Positions 1,149 to 12,447 are shown, numbered from the stretch's first letter. The stretch is 14,048 bases of DNA from a virus (IMGVR_UViG_2582580966_000010); one strand, 5' to 3'. The notes: generated by a model from the letters alone, not told the origin. Translations and numbers: made by a program.

Positions 1149-1373
1149 TCAACACACTGGCTGTAATGCAGCGGATACCATGCGGCATTTAGCGGCATTC
1201 ATCGTACACTCAACGGTTAGCTCTTCATTCGTGGCATTCACCTGAAAGGTCCGGGAGTGTAATTGCGTACATTTACCACTGAACGAACCTTCAACAAGAA
1301 CACGACCACGCTGCAAAATACGGAACGGAATTGTTCCCTGAAAAGGCTTTACGGTTACCAGTAATTTCTTCAT
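1149..1373 (-). CDS. Hypothetical small protein (74 aa) downstream of Rz
   Basis: ATG at 1373 preceded by a GGAGA SD. The N-terminal two-thirds (MKKLLVTVKPFQGTIPFRILQRGRVLVEGSFSG...) looks protein-like, but the C-terminus is Cys/Arg-rich and may be degenerate. Confidence 0.35.
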   Translation of the reverse strand: MKKLLVTVKPFQGTIPFRILQRGRVLVEGSFSGKCTQLHSRTFQVNATNEELTVECTMNAAKCRMVSAALQPVC

Positions 1374-1396
1374 GCATTCTCCGGATAACAAAAATA

Positions 1397-1864
1397 CTAG
1401 TTAATACACTGAGTGCGGATATAGTCCTGCGCCCCTTCCAGTTGCTTCTGCATTGTCATCAACCGCTCTCTGAGGGTGAAATAATCCCGTTCAGCGGTGT
1501 CTGCCAGTCGGGGGCCGGTTGCATTATCCACGCGGGCGGTGCCGGTGGCTTCACGCACGGAACCTGGACAGGTGGCGTTGATACGCAGGCTGCGGCGACC
1601 AGCGGCAACGTCAGCGCGCAGAGTTTCATTTTCAGCTCTCGCATCGGCTAACTCCTTTGTGTATTTTTCATCCAGCGCAGCAACATCACGCTGACGCTGC
1701 TGCATGTCAGTAATGGTTGTGTTTGCCAGCTCCAGCTCTCTGGCTTTTTTATCGCGCTGCGCTTTGTAGGTGATGGCGTTATCGCGGTAATGATTCAGCC
1801 CCAGACTAAGCACACCACAGGCTACCAGCAGGACAATAATCACCACACACAGAACACGGTTCAT
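1397..1864 (-). CDS. Rz: Rz i-spanin (inner-membrane spanin subunit)
   Basis: Strong similarity to lambda Rz as remembered: N-terminal TM followed by [15 protein letters not shown]...[15 protein letters not shown]...AAGRR...[23 protein letters not shown]. Start chosen at MNRVL (ATG 1864) to match lambda Rz length; the ORF track extends to an upstream GTG. Confidence 0.9.
1459..1644 (-). CDS. Rz1: Rz1 o-spanin (outer-membrane lipoprotein spanin), embedded in Rz in the +1 frame
   Basis: 61-aa ORF wholly inside Rz in another frame. It has a lipobox (LVAAAC) and the proline-rich motif [30 protein letters not shown], nearly identical to lambda Rz1. Confidence 0.85.
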
Positions 1865-1963
1865 ATCACCACCAACGGATTGCCCAGACCAGAACAGCAA
1901 TGGCCACAATACGAATGGCAAATGCCATTGCCCGAATAAGTTCAGCACTCATCTTTTTAAAGT

Positions 1964-2146
1964 TCACGATTTCAGCGCAATGACCAGTTTTGCCAGCCCA
2001 TACAGTATCGGAGACACAGCGATACCAACCGCCACCCACTTAATAGCAAAAGCCAGCGCTCTGCTGATGTCATCAGTTACTGGCGCTTTCAGTTCAAGGC
2101 CGTTTTTCATAGTCAACCTCAACAGAATTCGTTTATACTTTTCCAT
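1964..2146 (-). CDS. Hypothetical 60-aa tail-anchored membrane protein between endolysin and Rz
   Basis: ATG at 2146 with a strong SD (AAGGGAG). Charged N-terminal half and a hydrophobic C-terminal helix (ALAFAIKWVAVGIAVSPILYGLAKLVIAL). An upstream in-frame ATG at 2179 is also possible. Confidence 0.45.
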   Translation of the reverse strand: MEKYKRILLRLTMKNGLELKAPVTDDISRALAFAIKWVAVGIAVSPILYGLAKLVIALKS

Positions 2147-2179
2147 GTTCTCCCTTGCCTTATCCAAGGTCAGAAACAC

Positions 2180-2212
2180 AAAACCCCGCTTGCAGCCAAC
2201 AAACGGGGTTTT
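2180..2212. terminator. Bidirectional intrinsic terminator-like hairpin between endolysin and the 60-aa ORF
   Basis: AAAACCCCG-cttgcagccaacaaa-CGGGGTTTTT: a GC stem flanked by an A-run on one side and a T-run on the other, so it gives a U-tract on both strands. Confidence 0.45.
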
Positions 2213-2302
2213 TACTTTTATTCACTTAGTTTTTGTTAGTTCGCAGGATTTCGTGTTATCCGTCCGTGTGAGCAAACCGCATTTTTCAGCAAAATATTCT
2301 GC

Positions 2303-2836
2303 TTATCTGTCAATTCCCCAGCACGCCAGCGCACTCTCCTGGTCGCGACGGGATACCTGACCGTAACAGTTGTTTGAGCGAATACGGCAGTCTCTGCCAC
2401 CGTCCTTAATCCACCAGCGAATCGCTTCGCATGCTCCCCTGCGATCACCTGCATTAATTCGTCTGTAAAACGTCGACGGGAAACACTTACCGGGACCAAT
2501 GTTGTACGGACAGAATGACGCGATCCCCGCTTTCTGGGGTTCGGTCAGCGGCACTCTGATGTTTTTCTCCACCCACGCCAGCGCTTTATCACGCTCAATG
2601 GCGTTAACCTGGTCGCATTTTTCCTTCGACAACTTCATGCCCGGAACGACAGGTTTGCCATCCACCATGATGGCACCACGGCAGATGGTCCAGATACCCG
2701 CACCATCACGGTATGCCGTGGTGTGGTTGCCTTCTTTTTCATCCAGAAACTGGTCGAGAATTTCAGGCGCAGACGCACCAGCGGCAATCAGCGCCAGAAC
2801 GGCAGCCGACAGGCCGTATCTGATTTTTGCGTTCAT
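2303..2836 (-). CDS. R: SAR (signal-anchor-release) endolysin, T4-lysozyme-like muramidase (GH24)
   Basis: Gly/Ala-rich weakly hydrophobic N-terminal SAR segment (YGLSAAVLALIAAGASAPEIL), followed by the catalytic E-x8-D-x5-T spacing (EGNHTTAYRDGAGIWT) seen in phage 21 R-type lysozymes. It pairs with the upstream pinholin. Confidence 0.9.
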   Translation of the reverse strand: MNAKIRYGLSAAVLALIAAGASAPEILDQFLDEKEGNHTTAYRDGAGIWTICRGAIMVDGKPVVPGMKLSKEKCDQVNAIERDKALAWVEKNIRVPLTEPQKAGIASFCPYNIGPGKCFPSTFYRRINAGDRRGACEAIRWWIKDGGRDCRIRSNNCYGQVSRRDQESALACWGIDR

Positions 2837-2961
2837 GGATATTTATCAGGATTTATCGGTTCCGAATCCCTGGATATGTTAAGTCTTCAGCCCGCCAGTG
2901 GTGGGCACTGGCGTAAACTCAACAATGCGAGATGGCTGCCTCGCAAAGATAAGGAACAGAT

Positions 2962-3237
2962 ATGAGTGAAGAAAATAGCAAAGAGAATACAGCACTTTTT
3001 GACAGAATTTTTACTCTTGAGTTACAGGTCGGTTTTCTTCTCCCAAAGATAATCAAAGCAATGGATGCACTAAGTAAAAATAACGCTGTGTCAGATTACC
3101 TGATCGCCGAAATGGAACATCTAATTAAAGAAATACCAAAGACAGTTGCTCGTGATGATAAAAGATTCCTCAAGGCTGCTGAAGATGCTCTTTCAACAGT
3201 GAAGCGCAGCTTAGATGCGCCGCGCGATCAAGAATAG
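2962..3237 (+). CDS. Hypothetical 91-aa helical protein, antisense to the late operon (moron-like)
   Basis: ATG at 2962 with SD AAGGA at 6-nt spacing. AT-rich. The opposite strand over 2837-3169 has no ORF. It is followed by its own plus-strand intrinsic terminator. Its 3' end overlaps the 3' end of the converging 176-aa gene by 68 bp. Confidence 0.5.
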   Translation: MSEENSKENTALFDRIFTLELQVGFLLPKIIKAMDALSKNNAVSDYLIAEMEHLIKEIPKTVARDDKRFLKAAEDALSTVKRSLDAPRDQE

Positions 3238-3700
3238 TTTCTTTCATTTCATCTGCTGCAAGCACCTCATTTTTTGTTGGGGTGCTTTTTTTCAATTCAG
3301 CGATATAGCACTCCAGTTTTTCAATGCGTGATTCAATATCATCGTTTTCTGACCGCAATGCCGTCGGTGGCGTCTTCAGAGAACCAGTAATTATTCCCGG
3401 TAGTTTTCCTCTGTAGGTTATCAACACATCCTGCGCCTCTAAAATTATGGGGCGCTTTTCCGGCAACGGACCATCCCCTTCACATAACCCGGCAGCAACA
3501 TCCATGAAAAACTGCTTCGCCTGCTTTTTCGCCTCAGCTTCGTAAAACTCCAGCGTGGCATCTTCAGTACGGTCAAGACTAATCGCCACATCTGGCAACA
3601 ACAGTGACGGATACCCACCAATTTCCAGTGCCACAGTAACAGTAATCTTATTCGGGTAATTATTTATCCCTTTAACAACCAGTTCGTATTTTTTCTTCAT
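3170..3700 (-). CDS. Hypothetical 176-aa protein translationally coupled downstream of the holin
   Basis: ATG at 3700 lies 4 nt after the holin stop, with a GGAGAG SD inside the holin 3' end. Predicted C-terminal coiled coil (ENDDIESRIEKLECYIAELKK). No motif I recognise. Confidence 0.6.
   Translation of the reverse strand: MKKKYELVVKGINNYPNKITVTVALEIGGYPSLLLPDVAISLDRTEDATLEFYEAEAKKQAKQFFMDVAAGLCEGDGPLPEKRPIILEAQDVLITYRGKLPGIITGSLKTPPTALRSENDDIESRIEKLECYIAELKKSTPTKNEVLAADEMKETILDRAAHLSCASLLKEHLQQP
3261..3292 (+). terminator. Intrinsic terminator for the plus-strand 91-aa gene
   Basis: AGCACC...GGTGC stem followed by TTTTTTT on the plus strand only; the minus-strand RNA has no U-tract after the hairpin. 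The loop is long (14 nt), so confidence is moderate. Confidence 0.4.
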
Positions 3701-3704
3701 CGCT

Positions 3705-3920
3705 TTACTCTCCCCGCGCCGCCTTACGACGGTCCTCTCTGATTTTGAAATACAGGTTAGTCAGATATGTCAGCAGCCCAAACAGCAGACTTCCCAGTAC
3801 GCCTATTGCCGCCCACTGAGACGGGGAAACCCTGTCCAGCAGCTGCAGGAACCAGTAGCCCGTTCCCACCGCTGACGTGGTGTATGACACACCTGTTGTG
3901 ATTTTTTCCATCTGGTACAT
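3705..3920 (-). CDS. S: Class II holin (phage 21 S-like pinholin)
   Basis: 71-aa ORF. The sequence [51 protein letters not shown] is near-identical to S21/EssD-type holins as remembered. Possible dual-start motif M1-Y-Q-M4. Strong SD (GGGAG). Confidence 0.9.
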
Positions 3921-3995
3921 ACCCCGTCTCCCGCAATCCGGAAGCTCACAACAACAAGAGGGGCATCAGCTCACACCGACAGCCCCTGCGCATGG

Positions 3996-4265
3996 TTACA
4001 TCATCATTTCGCCGTCAGGCTGAGGCTCACTGCTACCATCAGGCTGAGACCCGACGCCATCTGAAACAGCACTGTCATCCGCAATGCCTTCCGGCTCCGG
4101 AACAGTCGGTGCGCCCAGCAGTTCATCCAGAATGGCATCCACTTCTGCATCAAGACGCGCCTCAAGGTTCTGCCGAAGTTGCTGTTTCAGTGCGCTTCTG
4201 ACTTCTTCAGAGCGCAGGACTTCCTTCACTGCTTCAGCAGTGACCAGCGATTTTATTTCTGACAT
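3996..4265 (-). CDS. Hypothetical small acidic protein (about 89 aa)
   Basis: ORF with a helical N-terminal region (MSEIKSLVTAEAVKEVLRSEEVRSALKQQLRQNLEARLDAEVDAILDELLG) and an acidic, low-complexity C-terminus. Start chosen at the internal ATG (4265) because the upstream extension is low-complexity. SD is weak. Confidence 0.4.
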   Translation of the reverse strand: MSEIKSLVTAEAVKEVLRSEEVRSALKQQLRQNLEARLDAEVDAILDELLGAPTVPEPEGIADDSAVSDGVGSQPDGSSEPQPDGEMMM

Positions 4266-6788: not shown

Positions 6789-6796
6789 GCCCATAG

Positions 6797-6823
6797 AAAA
6801 GCCCCTCCGGAGAGGGGCTTTTT
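6797..6823. terminator. Bidirectional intrinsic terminator downstream of the TerB operon
   Basis: AAAA-GCCCCTC-cgga-GAGGGGC-TTTTT: a perfect 7-bp GC stem with an A-run and a T-run on either side. Confidence 0.55.
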
Positions 6824-7063
6824 ACAGTGGTAGTGTAGACAATTTTGCATGGTGCCGGGTGCCTCCCGGTGAGTTCAGTATCAGCACCTGAACCCGCACA
6901 GAAAGGATAAGGGTCGGTGACAAAACACCAGTTGCTGATTGCCCCTCCGCACAGGGGGATTCACCATGCCAGTTTCTTTTAACAAACTCCCCGCAAACCA
7001 GACAACAGTCAACCGCCTGAATTGTGAGGTATTTAAAAATTTCAACGGGTAACTGATACCCTG

Positions 7064-7835: not shown

Positions 7836-7912
7836 TGGCGCGTTGTACTGGATTCGAACCAGTGACCGATTGCTTAGAAGGCAATTGCTCTGTCCGGCTG
7901 AGCTAACAACGC
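7836..7912 (-). tRNA. tRNA-Arg (anticodon UCU)
   Basis: Hand-folded cloverleaf: acceptor GCGTTGT/ACAACGC, D-arm GCTC...GAGC, anticodon stem ATTGC/GCAAT with loop CTTCTAA, T-arm CTGG-TTCGAAT-CCAG, then discriminator and an encoded CCA. Confidence 0.8.
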
Positions 7913-7928
7913 AGGATACAGATAATGA

Positions 7929-8002
7929 ACCGCCTTCGGGGATCCGAACTCCGCGCAACCAGCTTCGAAGGCTGGCGCTCTTTCCTGATGAGCTAATGGC
8001 GG
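7929..8002 (-). tRNA. tRNA-like gene, Arg (anticodon UCG), imperfect and without encoded CCA; possibly degenerate
   Basis: Cloverleaf with anticodon stem CCAGC/GCTGG and loop CTTCGAA. The acceptor stem has one A-A mismatch and the T-stem one A-C mismatch. The 3' end is followed by TCA rather than CCA. Confidence 0.5.
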
Positions 8003-8009
8003 TATGTGA

Positions 8010-8085
8010 TGGTGGCCCTTGCTGGATTTGAACCAGCGACCTGGCGATTATGAGTCGCTCGCTCTCACCACTGAGCTAAAGGGCC
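8010..8085 (-). tRNA. tRNA-Ile2 (anticodon CAU, ileX/ileZ-like; a Met assignment cannot be excluded from sequence alone)
   Basis: Sequence GGCCCTTTAGCTCAGTGGTGAGAGCGAGCGACTCATAATCGCCAGGTCGCTGGTTCAAATCCAGCAAGGGCCACCA. The anticodon stem-loop matches E. coli ileX-type tRNA as remembered. Perfect acceptor stem and an encoded CCA. Confidence 0.8.
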
Positions 8086-9384: not shown

Positions 9385-10206
9385 CTATCGCGTTACCCTC
9401 TTTAACTGCCGCTCCGCCCATGCCTCTTCAATGTCAAACCGAACCACCAACGTATCGTAAAAGCGTTTCACTGATTTTTTCCACGTATCAAGCGTGATAG
9501 CACTCGTCACTTTGCATATGGCATTAAATGCCTCCGTTGATGGTAGTCTTTCACAGCCACGACCACCACAACGCTGGCAGTCTCTGATAACAGGCATACC
9601 ACGTTTTACCGACTCTTCACGATGAATGGCGACACCACGCCCACGGCAATCCTTACAGGCGGTGGAAACCTCACCCTTTCCGCCACACTCCGGACAGGCA
9701 ACTTTTACCACCTCCCTGACTTTTTTCCATTCTTCCCAGTAAGACGGATACACACCTTTCGTACACTTTGCCCATACCGGCGGCTTACCATCCGGATACT
9801 GGACCTTGTTTGTAAAAACTACGCTTTCAATAAATTTTTCCCCATAGCAACAAGGGCACTGCTTTTTACTCGCTGCGCTGCGGGCATAATCCTCAAAAGC
9901 GTACGAAGCCATAATGCGCATCACTACCGGTTTTATTTCTGCCGGGAGTTTTCTTAACGCCGCCACGCGATCACACCGACTGAGTGCATATTCTGTCAGC
10001 AATTCTGTTGCCCGCTCTCTGTCATTCATACTAATGCCCATTTTCCCAAGGAACGCAGAAAACCCCATCCCAGCCCGATTCTGTGTCATGCCCTGCGCGG
10101 CCATCACATCAGTGATACTCAGCGCATCTTTCGACGTTGAGGCCGATGCATCAGTCAGGCCGGGGGATTTTGGGGAGTAGTATTTCGGTAAATCTTCCAG
10201 TTTCAT
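9385..10206 (-). CDS. Q: Late-gene antiterminator Q (QuuQ-like)
   Basis: 273-aa ORF. The N-terminus MKLEDLPKYYSPKSPGLTD...SITDVMAAQGM matches Qin QuuQ-type Q as remembered. Several CxxC pairs suggest a zinc-binding domain. It lies between rusA and pR'/tR'. Confidence 0.8.
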   Translation of the reverse strand: MKLEDLPKYYSPKSPGLTDASASTSKDALSITDVMAAQGMTQNRAGMGFSAFLGKMGISMNDRERATELLTEYALSRCDRVAALRKLPAEIKPVVMRIMASYAFEDYARSAASKKQCPCCYGEKFIESVVFTNKVQYPDGKPPVWAKCTKGVYPSYWEEWKKVREVVKVACPECGGKGEVSTACKDCRGRGVAIHREESVKRGMPVIRDCQRCGGRGCERLPSTEAFNAICKVTSAITLDTWKKSVKRFYDTLVVRFDIEEAWAERQLKRVTR

Positions 10207-12080: not shown

Positions 12081-12236
12081 TTACTCCTCAGGTTCGTAAG
12101 CTGTGAAGACAGCGACCTCCGTCTGGCCGGTTCGGATTCGTACCTCGCAGAGGTCTTTCCTCGTTACCAGTGCCGTCACAATGACGGTTAAACAGATGAC
12201 GATCAGGGCGATTAGCATCGCCTTTTGCTGCTTCAT
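12081..12236 (-). CDS. hok: Hok-family type I toxin (identical in sequence to HokD/RelF as remembered)
   Basis: Hand translation gives MKQQKAMLIALIVICLTVIVTALVTRKDLCEVRIRTGQTEVAVFTAYEPEE (51 aa): one TM helix plus a periplasmic tail with conserved Cys. Confidence 0.9.
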   Translation of the reverse strand: MKQQKAMLIALIVICLTVIVTALVTRKDLCEVRIRTGQTEVAVFTAYEPEE

Positions 12237-12293
12237 AGCCTGCTTCTCCTTGCCTTTCGGCACGTAAGAGGCTAACCTACGTGTGTAGAGCAT
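12081..12293 (-). CDS. mok: mok-like overlapping reading frame (same frame as hok, upstream start)
   Basis: In-frame upstream extension MLYTRRLASYVPKGKEKQA running into hok, as in hok/mok/sok loci where mok translation is needed for hok translation. Confidence 0.55.
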   Translation of the reverse strand: MLYTRRLASYVPKGKEKQAMKQQKAMLIALIVICLTVIVTALVTRKDLCEVRIRTGQTEVAVFTAYEPEE

Positions 12294-12447
12294 AGATATG
12301 GCCTCAGATTAATGTTAAGCGTCTTGCCGGACGCGTAATGTTAACTGGGGCTTTTCTCTATCTGCCTTTTGGTGTTCATGCCTGAGACAGATAGCCTCAA
12401 GCACCCGCTGCAATTCTACTTAACTCTCCTTTTCCCGCAAACCGTTT

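Follow-up and report, generated by a model that had tools for sequence, protein, structure and literature searches.

The sequence analyzed here, which we call the window, is a stretch of 14,048 nucleotides from a virus (IMGVR_UViG_2582580966_000010). It corresponds to the late region of a lambdoid (Stx-/Qin-like) Escherichia coli prophage, with the late genes on the minus strand. The elements considered below are the following, in late-region order:

9385-10206, minus strand: gene of the Q antiterminator, the first of the late region
between Q and the holin gene: nanS-like esterase gene
3705-3920, minus strand: S21-type holin gene
3170-3700, minus strand: gene of a DUF1327/YdfR protein
2303-2836, minus strand: R21-type endolysin (lysozyme) gene, R, with an Ala/Gly-rich SAR-like N-terminus (PF00959, E = 3.3e-24), forming the 5' flank
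2180-2212, minus strand: GC-rich hairpin flanked by an A-tract (5') and a T-tract (3'), similar to a bidirectional intrinsic terminator and 5' boundary of the cassette described below
2147-2179, minus strand: leader in which CCUUG 2165-2169 and CAAGG 2153-2157 form a small stem-loop, and which contains the first Shine-Dalgarno sequence (SD1, GGGAG 2150-2154)
1964-2146, minus strand: small membrane-protein gene, long form of 60 aa with its ATG at 2146, MEKYKRILLRLTMKNGLELKAPVTDDISRALAFAIKWVAVGIAVSPILYGLAKLVIALKS
1964-2110, minus strand: internal-start form of the same gene, 48 aa (MKNGLE...), with ATG at 2108-2110 and a second Shine-Dalgarno sequence (SD2, GAGG 2117-2120)
2096-2120, minus strand: predicted helix of SD2 (GAGGUU 2115-2120) with GG..CCUU 2096-2101, the internal AUG being in the loop
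2110-2139, plus strand: antisense promoter-like motif TAGTCA-18 nt-TATACT, with the -10 hexamer TATACT at 2134-2139
1866-1952, minus strand: 28-codon paralog ORF, equivalent to the 3' part of a type B member of the same family (PHROG 4493, E = 3.8e-6)
1397-1864, minus strand: Rz i-spanin gene (PF03245, E = 1.6e-50), forming the 3' flank
1459-1644, minus strand: Rz1, embedded in Rz (PF06085, E = 4.3e-21)

The first interruption of the lysis cassette is a 91-aa ORF (2962-3237, plus strand; PHROG 18136), which lies between the endolysin gene and the YdfR-like gene in the direction opposite to the late operon, has its own plus-strand terminator-like site (3260-3287) and resembles a conventional opposite-strand moron. 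The minus-strand segments 6789-6998 and 7839-8085, between Q and the holin gene, hold the STnc100 sRNA (146 bits) and three tRNA genes, as is typical for Stx-like late regions. Finally, a lipoprotein with a TonB C-terminal domain (PF03544) is encoded at 478-807 on the minus strand, in the position of bor in lambda; PHROG 1267 labels its family as 'Rz-like spanin', which looks like a mis-annotation.

The genes homologous to R and Rz overlap in the Qin prophage of K-12, with nothing between them, and in the window they are separated by 438 nt, which must therefore be an insertion, as had been claimed in a preliminary description of this locus. In agreement with this, the G+C content is 42-48% over the insert (1925-2300); the corresponding values are 52-58% for the endolysin gene and 47-65% for Rz. 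The same description left a 99-nt gap between the small membrane-protein gene and Rz. Nevertheless, this segment is occupied by the 28-codon ORF, which is homologous to the transmembrane (TM) half of the small-protein family and has its stop one base before the ATG of Rz, so that its last codons, UGGUGGUGA, occupy the expected position of the Rz ribosome-binding site. In the PGAP annotation this ORF is a CDS in NCTC86, and in OkiPb01678 it is a fragment.

Two types of C-terminus were distinguished in the family. Type A members, to which the 60-aa gene of the window belongs, end in ...LYGLAKLVIALKS with their own stop, and type B members end in ...VLVWAIRWW with the stop packed against the start of the next gene (TGGTGGTGAtATG). 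In GER2, phiSTEC1575-Stx2k and loci L090-92, the type B gene is complete and lies directly against Rz or a lipoprotein gene. In the window, therefore, a complete type A gene precedes what is left of a type B gene, its 3' part. Derivation of the type B 'IRWW' end from the 'AIRWW' of the endolysin was rejected, as the DNA differs and the resemblance is probably a coincidence.

In most related E. coli loci, the slot before Rz holds an unrelated gene, absent from the window, that encodes a 43-aa membrane protein (MSDKLITLAKILCVIVGISFSLMLVALFLSMAWMMLSSSGLLG; PHROG 4906) and has a strong Shine-Dalgarno sequence (AGGGAGGA); it is found at L019 (3184-3331), in most IMG/VR loci and in L124 (2765-2896), from O157:H7. 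In TL-2011c, another small membrane ORF (PHROG 6632) is present in this slot. Since several distinct genes of small membrane proteins were found there, the R-Rz junction is a hotspot for such genes. In addition, a gene encoding a 60-aa lipoprotein (lipobox LLVGC; PHROG 7528), whose first 8 nt match those of Rz, replaces Rz directly 3' of type B genes in L091 (3119-3301), L094 (2149-2331) and L050; no Rz was seen in these three loci. Loci with this replacement have holin_8/holin_3_7 and GH108 or M15 endolysins.

The ORF at 1964-2146 encodes, as previously described, a 60-aa protein with one predicted C-terminal TM helix, which is followed by a tail of only 2-7 residues. The AlphaFold model (pLDDT 77) consists of a helix at residues 2-14, a hinge and a helix at residues 21-59 holding the hydrophobic segment. 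The protein matches over its full length PHROG 1115 (E = 6.6e-42) and PHROG 4493 (E = 3.5e-29), both without an assigned function, and searches with the small proteins of Pfam, NCBIfam, PADLOC (at E <= 0.1) and PDB sequences gave no match. Likewise, keywords, peptide strings and protein accessions did not retrieve any study of this gene from the searchable literature. The possibility that the ORF encodes a holin was rejected because there is no Pfam or PHROG holin match, the C-terminal tail is too short, as indicated above, and the gene lies downstream of R. Its assignment as an i-spanin or spanin was also discarded, since the TM helix is C-terminal, there is no lipobox and genuine Rz and Rz1 genes are located downstream.

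Miscalls are frequent among small ORFs, and for this one the start varies with the gene caller, giving products of 48, 60 or 71 aa. It could be argued, then, that the ORF is spurious or decaying and that the hairpin is merely the terminator of the endolysin gene. We regard this as very improbable, and the comparative data largely refute it. The comparison of codons 13-60 with the Salmonella copies gave a pN/pS of ~0.2, with 18, 7 and 36 variable sites at the first, second and third codon positions, respectively; the reading frame has stayed open in Escherichia, Salmonella and Lelliottia and in metagenomes; and the hairpin moves with the ORF and not with the endolysin gene. Lack of conservation, which the preliminary description had named as a reason to abandon the ORF, was therefore not found, and the small protein is under purifying selection.

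The gene has two possible translation starts. The internal ATG at 2110 is in frame with the long form and has a GAGG motif 6 nt 5' of it. Its Met is invariant in all members of the family, distant ones included, and GAGG or GGAGG is kept before it in nearly all lineages, even where the upstream peptide has diverged (GAGA and TAGG are rare variants). Because of this family-wide conservation, the 48-aa product would be at least as likely as the 60-aa one. The N-terminal extension present in the long form (xKYKRILLRLT) is basic and is conserved as protein in distant members.

The hairpin preceding the gene, whose minus-strand sequence from 2212 to 2180 is AAAACCCCGTTTGTTGGCTGCAAGCGGGGTTTT, outranks every other terminator-like site of the region 1300-4100 by a wide margin. 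It contains 14 pairs and folds with a dG of -21.6 kcal/mol (z = -4.9), and none of 200 shuffled sequences folded as well. It shows a GC-rich stem-loop with a U-tract immediately 3', as intrinsic terminators do. Its minus-strand tail is UUUU followed by GTGTTTCTGA and its plus-strand 3' sequence is UUUUUACUUUU. The A-runs on one side and the T-runs on the other, already noticed in the preliminary description, make it terminator-like on both strands, and it can be considered a credible predicted bidirectional terminator. Between 1964 and Rz, weak 5-bp stems were the only terminator-like sites.

A hairpin is located 5' of nearly every family member, and its stem sequence varies by lineage while pairing is kept. 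In the stem alignment 97.3% of the cells were paired and 9 cells had changed on both sides; the covariation score was 0.166 versus 0.042 in shuffled alignments, with none of 500 shuffles reaching as high a value. In a wider alignment of 12 lineages, both-side changes were observed at seven pairs of the hairpin. The distance between a strong GC hairpin and the internal Met is 63-72 nt in every lineage, with the exception of the Salmonella sopD remnant described below. These patterns show that the hairpin is maintained by compensatory changes.

The comparison of R-Rz junctions, which had been proposed as a check, was performed and revealed that the hairpin and the gene move as a unit of ~250 bp, also into slots without relation to lysis. 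The order is A-tract, GC hairpin, T-tract, leader of ~35 nt and ORF. Despite unrelated upstream genes, the block of homology always begins at the A-tract before the hairpin, which places the hairpin with the small gene. The main result of this work is that, by this comparison, the hairpin belongs to the cassette of the small gene and not to the endolysin. The terminator-like character on both strands, as seen in the preliminary description, was confirmed.

The genes found upstream of the cassette encode endolysins of four unrelated families (R21-type lysozyme, GH19, GH108 and Peptidase_M15_4), an antirepressor, or a 138-aa protein following a lambda-S-type holin, and at least three holin families accompany it. 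Distant members are located 3' of tail-fibre genes (DUF4376/Caudo_TAP) in L084, L097 and the Lelliottia locus L117, and between the baseplate spike and sheath-initiator genes of the myovirus-like elements L103-L106. Moreover, L098 (2923-3903) contains three tandem units of hairpin plus small membrane protein 3' of a lambda-E-like major capsid gene; in this array a 48-nt hairpin repeat occurs three times, and one or two genes of small membrane proteins come after each copy. The copies in tail-fibre, capsid and baseplate contexts lack neighbouring genes for a holin, an endolysin or a spanin. In all copies the cassette is co-oriented with the surrounding late genes. Terminator and small gene are, by these comparisons, a conserved unit present in several unrelated slots of late operons.

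A Salmonella chromosomal remnant beside sopD (L100-L102, 3001-3601) has an intact 49-aa member packed against Rz. In this remnant the holin and endolysin genes are gone and the upstream hairpin is replaced by a long perfect inverted repeat; its 49-aa protein is listed in 1647 blocks of the collection.

With the presence of at least 80% of the hairpin-plus-ORF query as criterion, the cassette was detected in 1036 of 5426 complete E. coli genomes (~19%), O157:H7 included. Only 14 of 50,697 deposited phage genomes had it, and 332 IMG/VR stretches encode a relative. A word-indexed protein search gave 119 homolog clusters, which come without exception from Escherichia, Salmonella or Shigella and bear the label 'hypothetical', and an exhaustive HMM search of 1.84 billion representatives gave only 21 matches. 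No relative was confirmed by a protein-profile scan of genome contigs, and a DNA-pattern scan gave mostly chance matches, those from Lelliottia and Sodalis being the only real ones. The small-protein family is, then, narrow yet common.

The large majority of the E. coli copies occupy the R-Rz junction. This location, the packing of type B members against the Rz start and the association of the small gene with Rz in the Salmonella remnant would be expected of a dedicated lysis-timing factor, one that binds or tunes the S21-type pinholin, the SAR endolysin or Rz/Rz1. The two starts, with a more basic long form, also recall the S107/S105 holin/antiholin pair, and small membrane accessory lysis proteins such as the releasin gp25 of Mu are known (PMC9239132). 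However, the same gene follows four unrelated endolysin families and coexists with at least three of holins, it is present where a small lipoprotein replaces Rz, it is found in tail-fibre, capsid and baseplate operons without any nearby lysis gene, and it lacks matches to holin, antiholin or spanin families. We consider a lysis-timing role unlikely, and so too a dedicated modulator of holin or spanin. The variety of holins and endolysins, together with the head, tail and baseplate contexts, argues against a specific lysis partner and favours an independent accessory function, which would be exerted at the inner membrane. From the two options of the preliminary description, a modulator of lysis or an independent moron, these contexts speak for an independent element and not for a specific holin or spanin partner.

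No sigma-70-like sense-strand promoter was found in the region 1300-4100 and, by manual reading, no sense-strand -10 hexamer with A2 and T6 exists between the hairpin and either start. A sense TATAAA in codons 4-5 was rejected as a promoter because it has neither T6 nor a -35 element; its bases five and six change in Salmonella, where the antisense hexamer stays intact. The absence of a sense promoter and the terminator upstream of the gene imply that the protein would be made only by terminator-resistant late transcription, and its dependence on Q-antiterminated transcription is the most likely mode of expression; the Q gene of the same prophage supports such late read-through. It had also been claimed that the terminator makes Rz/Rz1 expression depend on antitermination. 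This is true but trivial, since it applies to the whole late operon: in lambdoid phages all the genes downstream of tR' depend on Q.

We favour, with moderate confidence, the explanation that the locus carries a self-contained, mobile, moron-like accessory cassette of temperate Enterobacterales phages, expressed late under Q and acting at the inner membrane. Its parts would be a bidirectional intrinsic-terminator hairpin, a short leader with a ribosome-binding site and the gene of a single-pass inner-membrane protein, which two in-frame starts would render in forms of 60 and 48 aa. The cassette would have recombined into the normally overlapping R-Rz junction, ahead of a paralog fragment of 28 codons. 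The small gene would be silent in the lysogen, and synthesis of the protein would be confined to late lytic growth, when Q-modified RNA polymerase passes the terminator; the protein would then act on the inner membrane independently of the holin, endolysin or spanin of the phage.

Some observations fit this cassette less well. Classic morons have their own promoter upstream and a terminator downstream of the gene, and here the terminator is upstream and no promoter was seen. In the baseplate contexts (L103-L106) an efficient sense terminator would cut off essential downstream genes unless antiterminated, so the hairpin may be leaky or may serve mainly the other strand. In addition, the concentration of E. 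coli copies in the R-Rz slot leaves room for a possible lysis-related role.

A different way of reading the same gene is as one of lysogenic conversion or superinfection exclusion, expressed in the prophage from a promoter that the scans do not recognise and directed against a host membrane protein or the entry of phage DNA. HK97 gp15 acts in this way on incoming phage DNA, and small membrane proteins frequently regulate larger ones. The typical moron positions of some copies, for instance at the end of tail-fibre clusters, and purifying selection even in prophage remnants would agree with such a function. Nevertheless, it seems improbable, because there is no sigma-70-like sense promoter between the hairpin and either start, the terminator directly upstream isolates the gene from read-through, and no PADLOC match was obtained.

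Several features of the leader and the starts suggest that translation of the small gene in the favoured cassette is tightly gated. The preliminary description attributed a strong Shine-Dalgarno sequence to the gene, and GGGAG is indeed present, but it is only 3 nt from the ATG at 2146 and, in the fold, partly paired in the small stem. Among E. coli variants this leader stem is conserved and its loop is variable. In the Salmonella and GER2 variants, the first Shine-Dalgarno sequence and ATG give rise to a uORF of 8 codons, and its stop overlaps the GTG with which the main frame begins. The helix that hides SD2, by pairing with codons 4-5 of the internal form, was obtained both in the RNAalifold consensus over 12 lineages and in the single-sequence fold; given its little covariation, it is suggestive only. 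The same codon was used at a rate of 63% in the N-terminal extension versus 44% in the gene body (Fisher p = 4e-5, the comparisons not being independent), and rare Arg codons were kept in this extension (CGA 7/7 and AGG 7/8).

The plus-strand promoter-like motif overlaps the first codons of the gene. It is a 9/12 match with an 18-nt spacer, of which ~2.8 are expected by chance per 2.8 kb, and the motif T(A/G)G(T/A)CA-18-TATACT/TATAAT was found at the same place in 8 of 10 lineages, L096 and L098 being those without it. After synonymous recoding of codons, 2.4 lineages with the motif were expected and none of 2000 simulations reached 8, a result which overstates the significance because the motif falls on conserved codons and the lineages are related by descent. 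Read by eye, the segment from the hairpin to the internal start contains a single -10 hexamer with A2 and T6, which lies on the antisense strand. A plus-strand RNA of ~70-75 nt (~2145-2220) with a 5' stem-loop and a terminator is predicted; its 5' end would be complementary to the start codon of the long form, and from there it would run across SD1 to the plus-strand U-tract of the hairpin. The conserved motif hints at a short antisense RNA and at a control similar to that of type I toxins.

Rfam searches over 1964-2212, at gathering thresholds and at E <= 10, gave nothing credible, the best match being the rimP leader (E = 0.067, below threshold). AsxR/AgvB and Pas, sRNAs already described from EHEC/EPEC prophages, map upstream of the holin and not to this site. 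Additionally, a near-consensus promoter-like site (TTCACA-16-TATAAT, 11/12) lies at 650-677 on the plus strand, antisense to the gene of the TonB_C lipoprotein. The scan detected no terminator-like site on the plus strand from there to the hairpin, so that 2180-2212 would be the first point at which antisense transcripts crossing Rz stop.

These features allow a type-I-toxin-like module to be proposed tentatively. A cis-antisense RNA from the promoter in codons 1-5 would gate a small toxic or depolarising membrane protein: by crossing SD1 and the start codon and ending at the hairpin, it would block translation of the long form, which in turn would be needed to open the helix that hides the Shine-Dalgarno sequence of the internal start. 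Such a module is compatible with the cassette favoured above, to which it would add a layer of control. It would account for a hairpin that is terminator-like on both strands in nearly all lineages without any annotated convergent gene needing it, for the sole -10 hexamer being antisense and kept in position well above expectation, and for the excess of synonymous conservation in the N-terminal extension. The predicted sequestering of SD2, the translational coupling of uORF and GTG in the Salmonella and GER2 variants, the tandem duplication, also seen in many type I loci, and a layout parallel to that of hok/mok/sok point in the same direction. In addition, the protein has the size and hydrophobicity of type I toxins (at most 60 aa; here 48 or 60 aa, with one TM helix). 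However, the promoter match is of a quality common by chance, its position coincides with conserved codons in lineages of shared ancestry, two lineages lack it, the putative toxin has no promoter of its own, and the TM helix is C-terminal, which is not the case in most type I toxins. Furthermore, no Pfam or NCBIfam match to known toxin families (Hok, Ldr, TisB, Ibs, ShoB, Fst and others) and no similarity to an Rfam antitoxin were found. A bolder version, of a probability similarly low, would be a new family of antisense-RNA-gated membrane toxins inside phage late operons, in which the ~70-nt RNA would silence the gene in the lysogen, late read-through would overwhelm this RNA and release a membrane-active peptide at lysis, and the hairpin would act as the repeat for duplication or movement.

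About one fifth of the complete E. coli genomes, O157:H7 strains included, carry this unit, whose gene is labelled 'hypothetical' in the databases. Recognising terminator and gene as one mobile cassette changes the way in which R-Rz 'interruptions' should be annotated, and the unit is a simple, testable object of 250 bp, in which a conserved leader precedes two starts and an antisense RNA may be encoded. If antisense control is true, it would represent a new type-I-like family and a new way for phages to keep a membrane-active peptide harmless during lysogeny. Otherwise, the cassette would still be a clean example of a promoter-less, antitermination-dependent moron.

No description of this cassette was found in the searchable literature, and known systems resemble it in part. 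As in hok/mok/sok, there is a small membrane protein with two nested starts, the downstream one being structurally hidden according to our prediction, a possible antisense promoter in the 5' coding region, an antisense terminator hairpin in the mRNA leader and tandem copies. In contrast to hok/mok/sok, there is no sequence or Rfam similarity, the TM helix lies at the C-terminus, the putative toxin lacks its own promoter, and both the antisense RNA and toxicity are only predicted here. The same prophage contains a hok/sok type I module, as a sok antitoxin RNA was identified at 12231-12406 on the minus strand (Rfam RF01794, 117 bits). The hokW-sokW locus of the Sakai prophage Sp5 is reported to aid phage release (PMC8621323).

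STnc6030 of the Salmonella prophage BTP1 is an experimentally shown antisense RNA of the late operon, which is made in lysogens and acts on late mRNA (PMC7067206); it was the sole precedent that a wider literature search on morons and type I systems brought up. The candidate transcript described here shares with it the location inside a prophage late operon, but STnc6030 is longer than 700 nt and antisense to tail genes, whereas the RNA of the cassette is predicted and of ~70 nt. With respect to dual-start holins (lambda S107/S105 and phage 21 S71/S68), the cassette protein also has two in-frame starts a few codons apart, in a lysis cassette, and extra N-terminal positive charge in the longer form. 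Unlike them, it has one TM helix and almost no C-terminal tail, its gene is 3' of the endolysin gene, it has no holin family match and it is also found outside lysis cassettes. The releasin gp25 of Mu (PMC9239132) and LydB of P1 are, similarly, small membrane proteins encoded beside a SAR endolysin and a spanin; nevertheless, the cassette protein shows no homology to them and also accompanies GH19, GH108 and M15 endolysins or lies away from lysis genes.

Finally, morons are the elements with which the cassette should be compared most closely; their definition is that of Juhala and Hendrix, with bor and lom of lambda and gp15 of HK97 as examples. The cassette differs from lambdoid morons in that no sigma-70 promoter of its own was detected, its terminator is upstream and not downstream of the gene, and the gene, which points in the direction of the late operon, apparently relies on read-through. 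Similarly to them, it consists of an extra small gene and a factor-independent terminator interposed between genes that are adjacent in related phages, has a base composition different from that of its flanks and occupies several late-operon slots. On these grounds it could be filed as a promoter-less, terminator-led moron, which departs from two of the defining features of the class, the own promoter and the downstream terminator, and retains the interposition and the distinct base composition.
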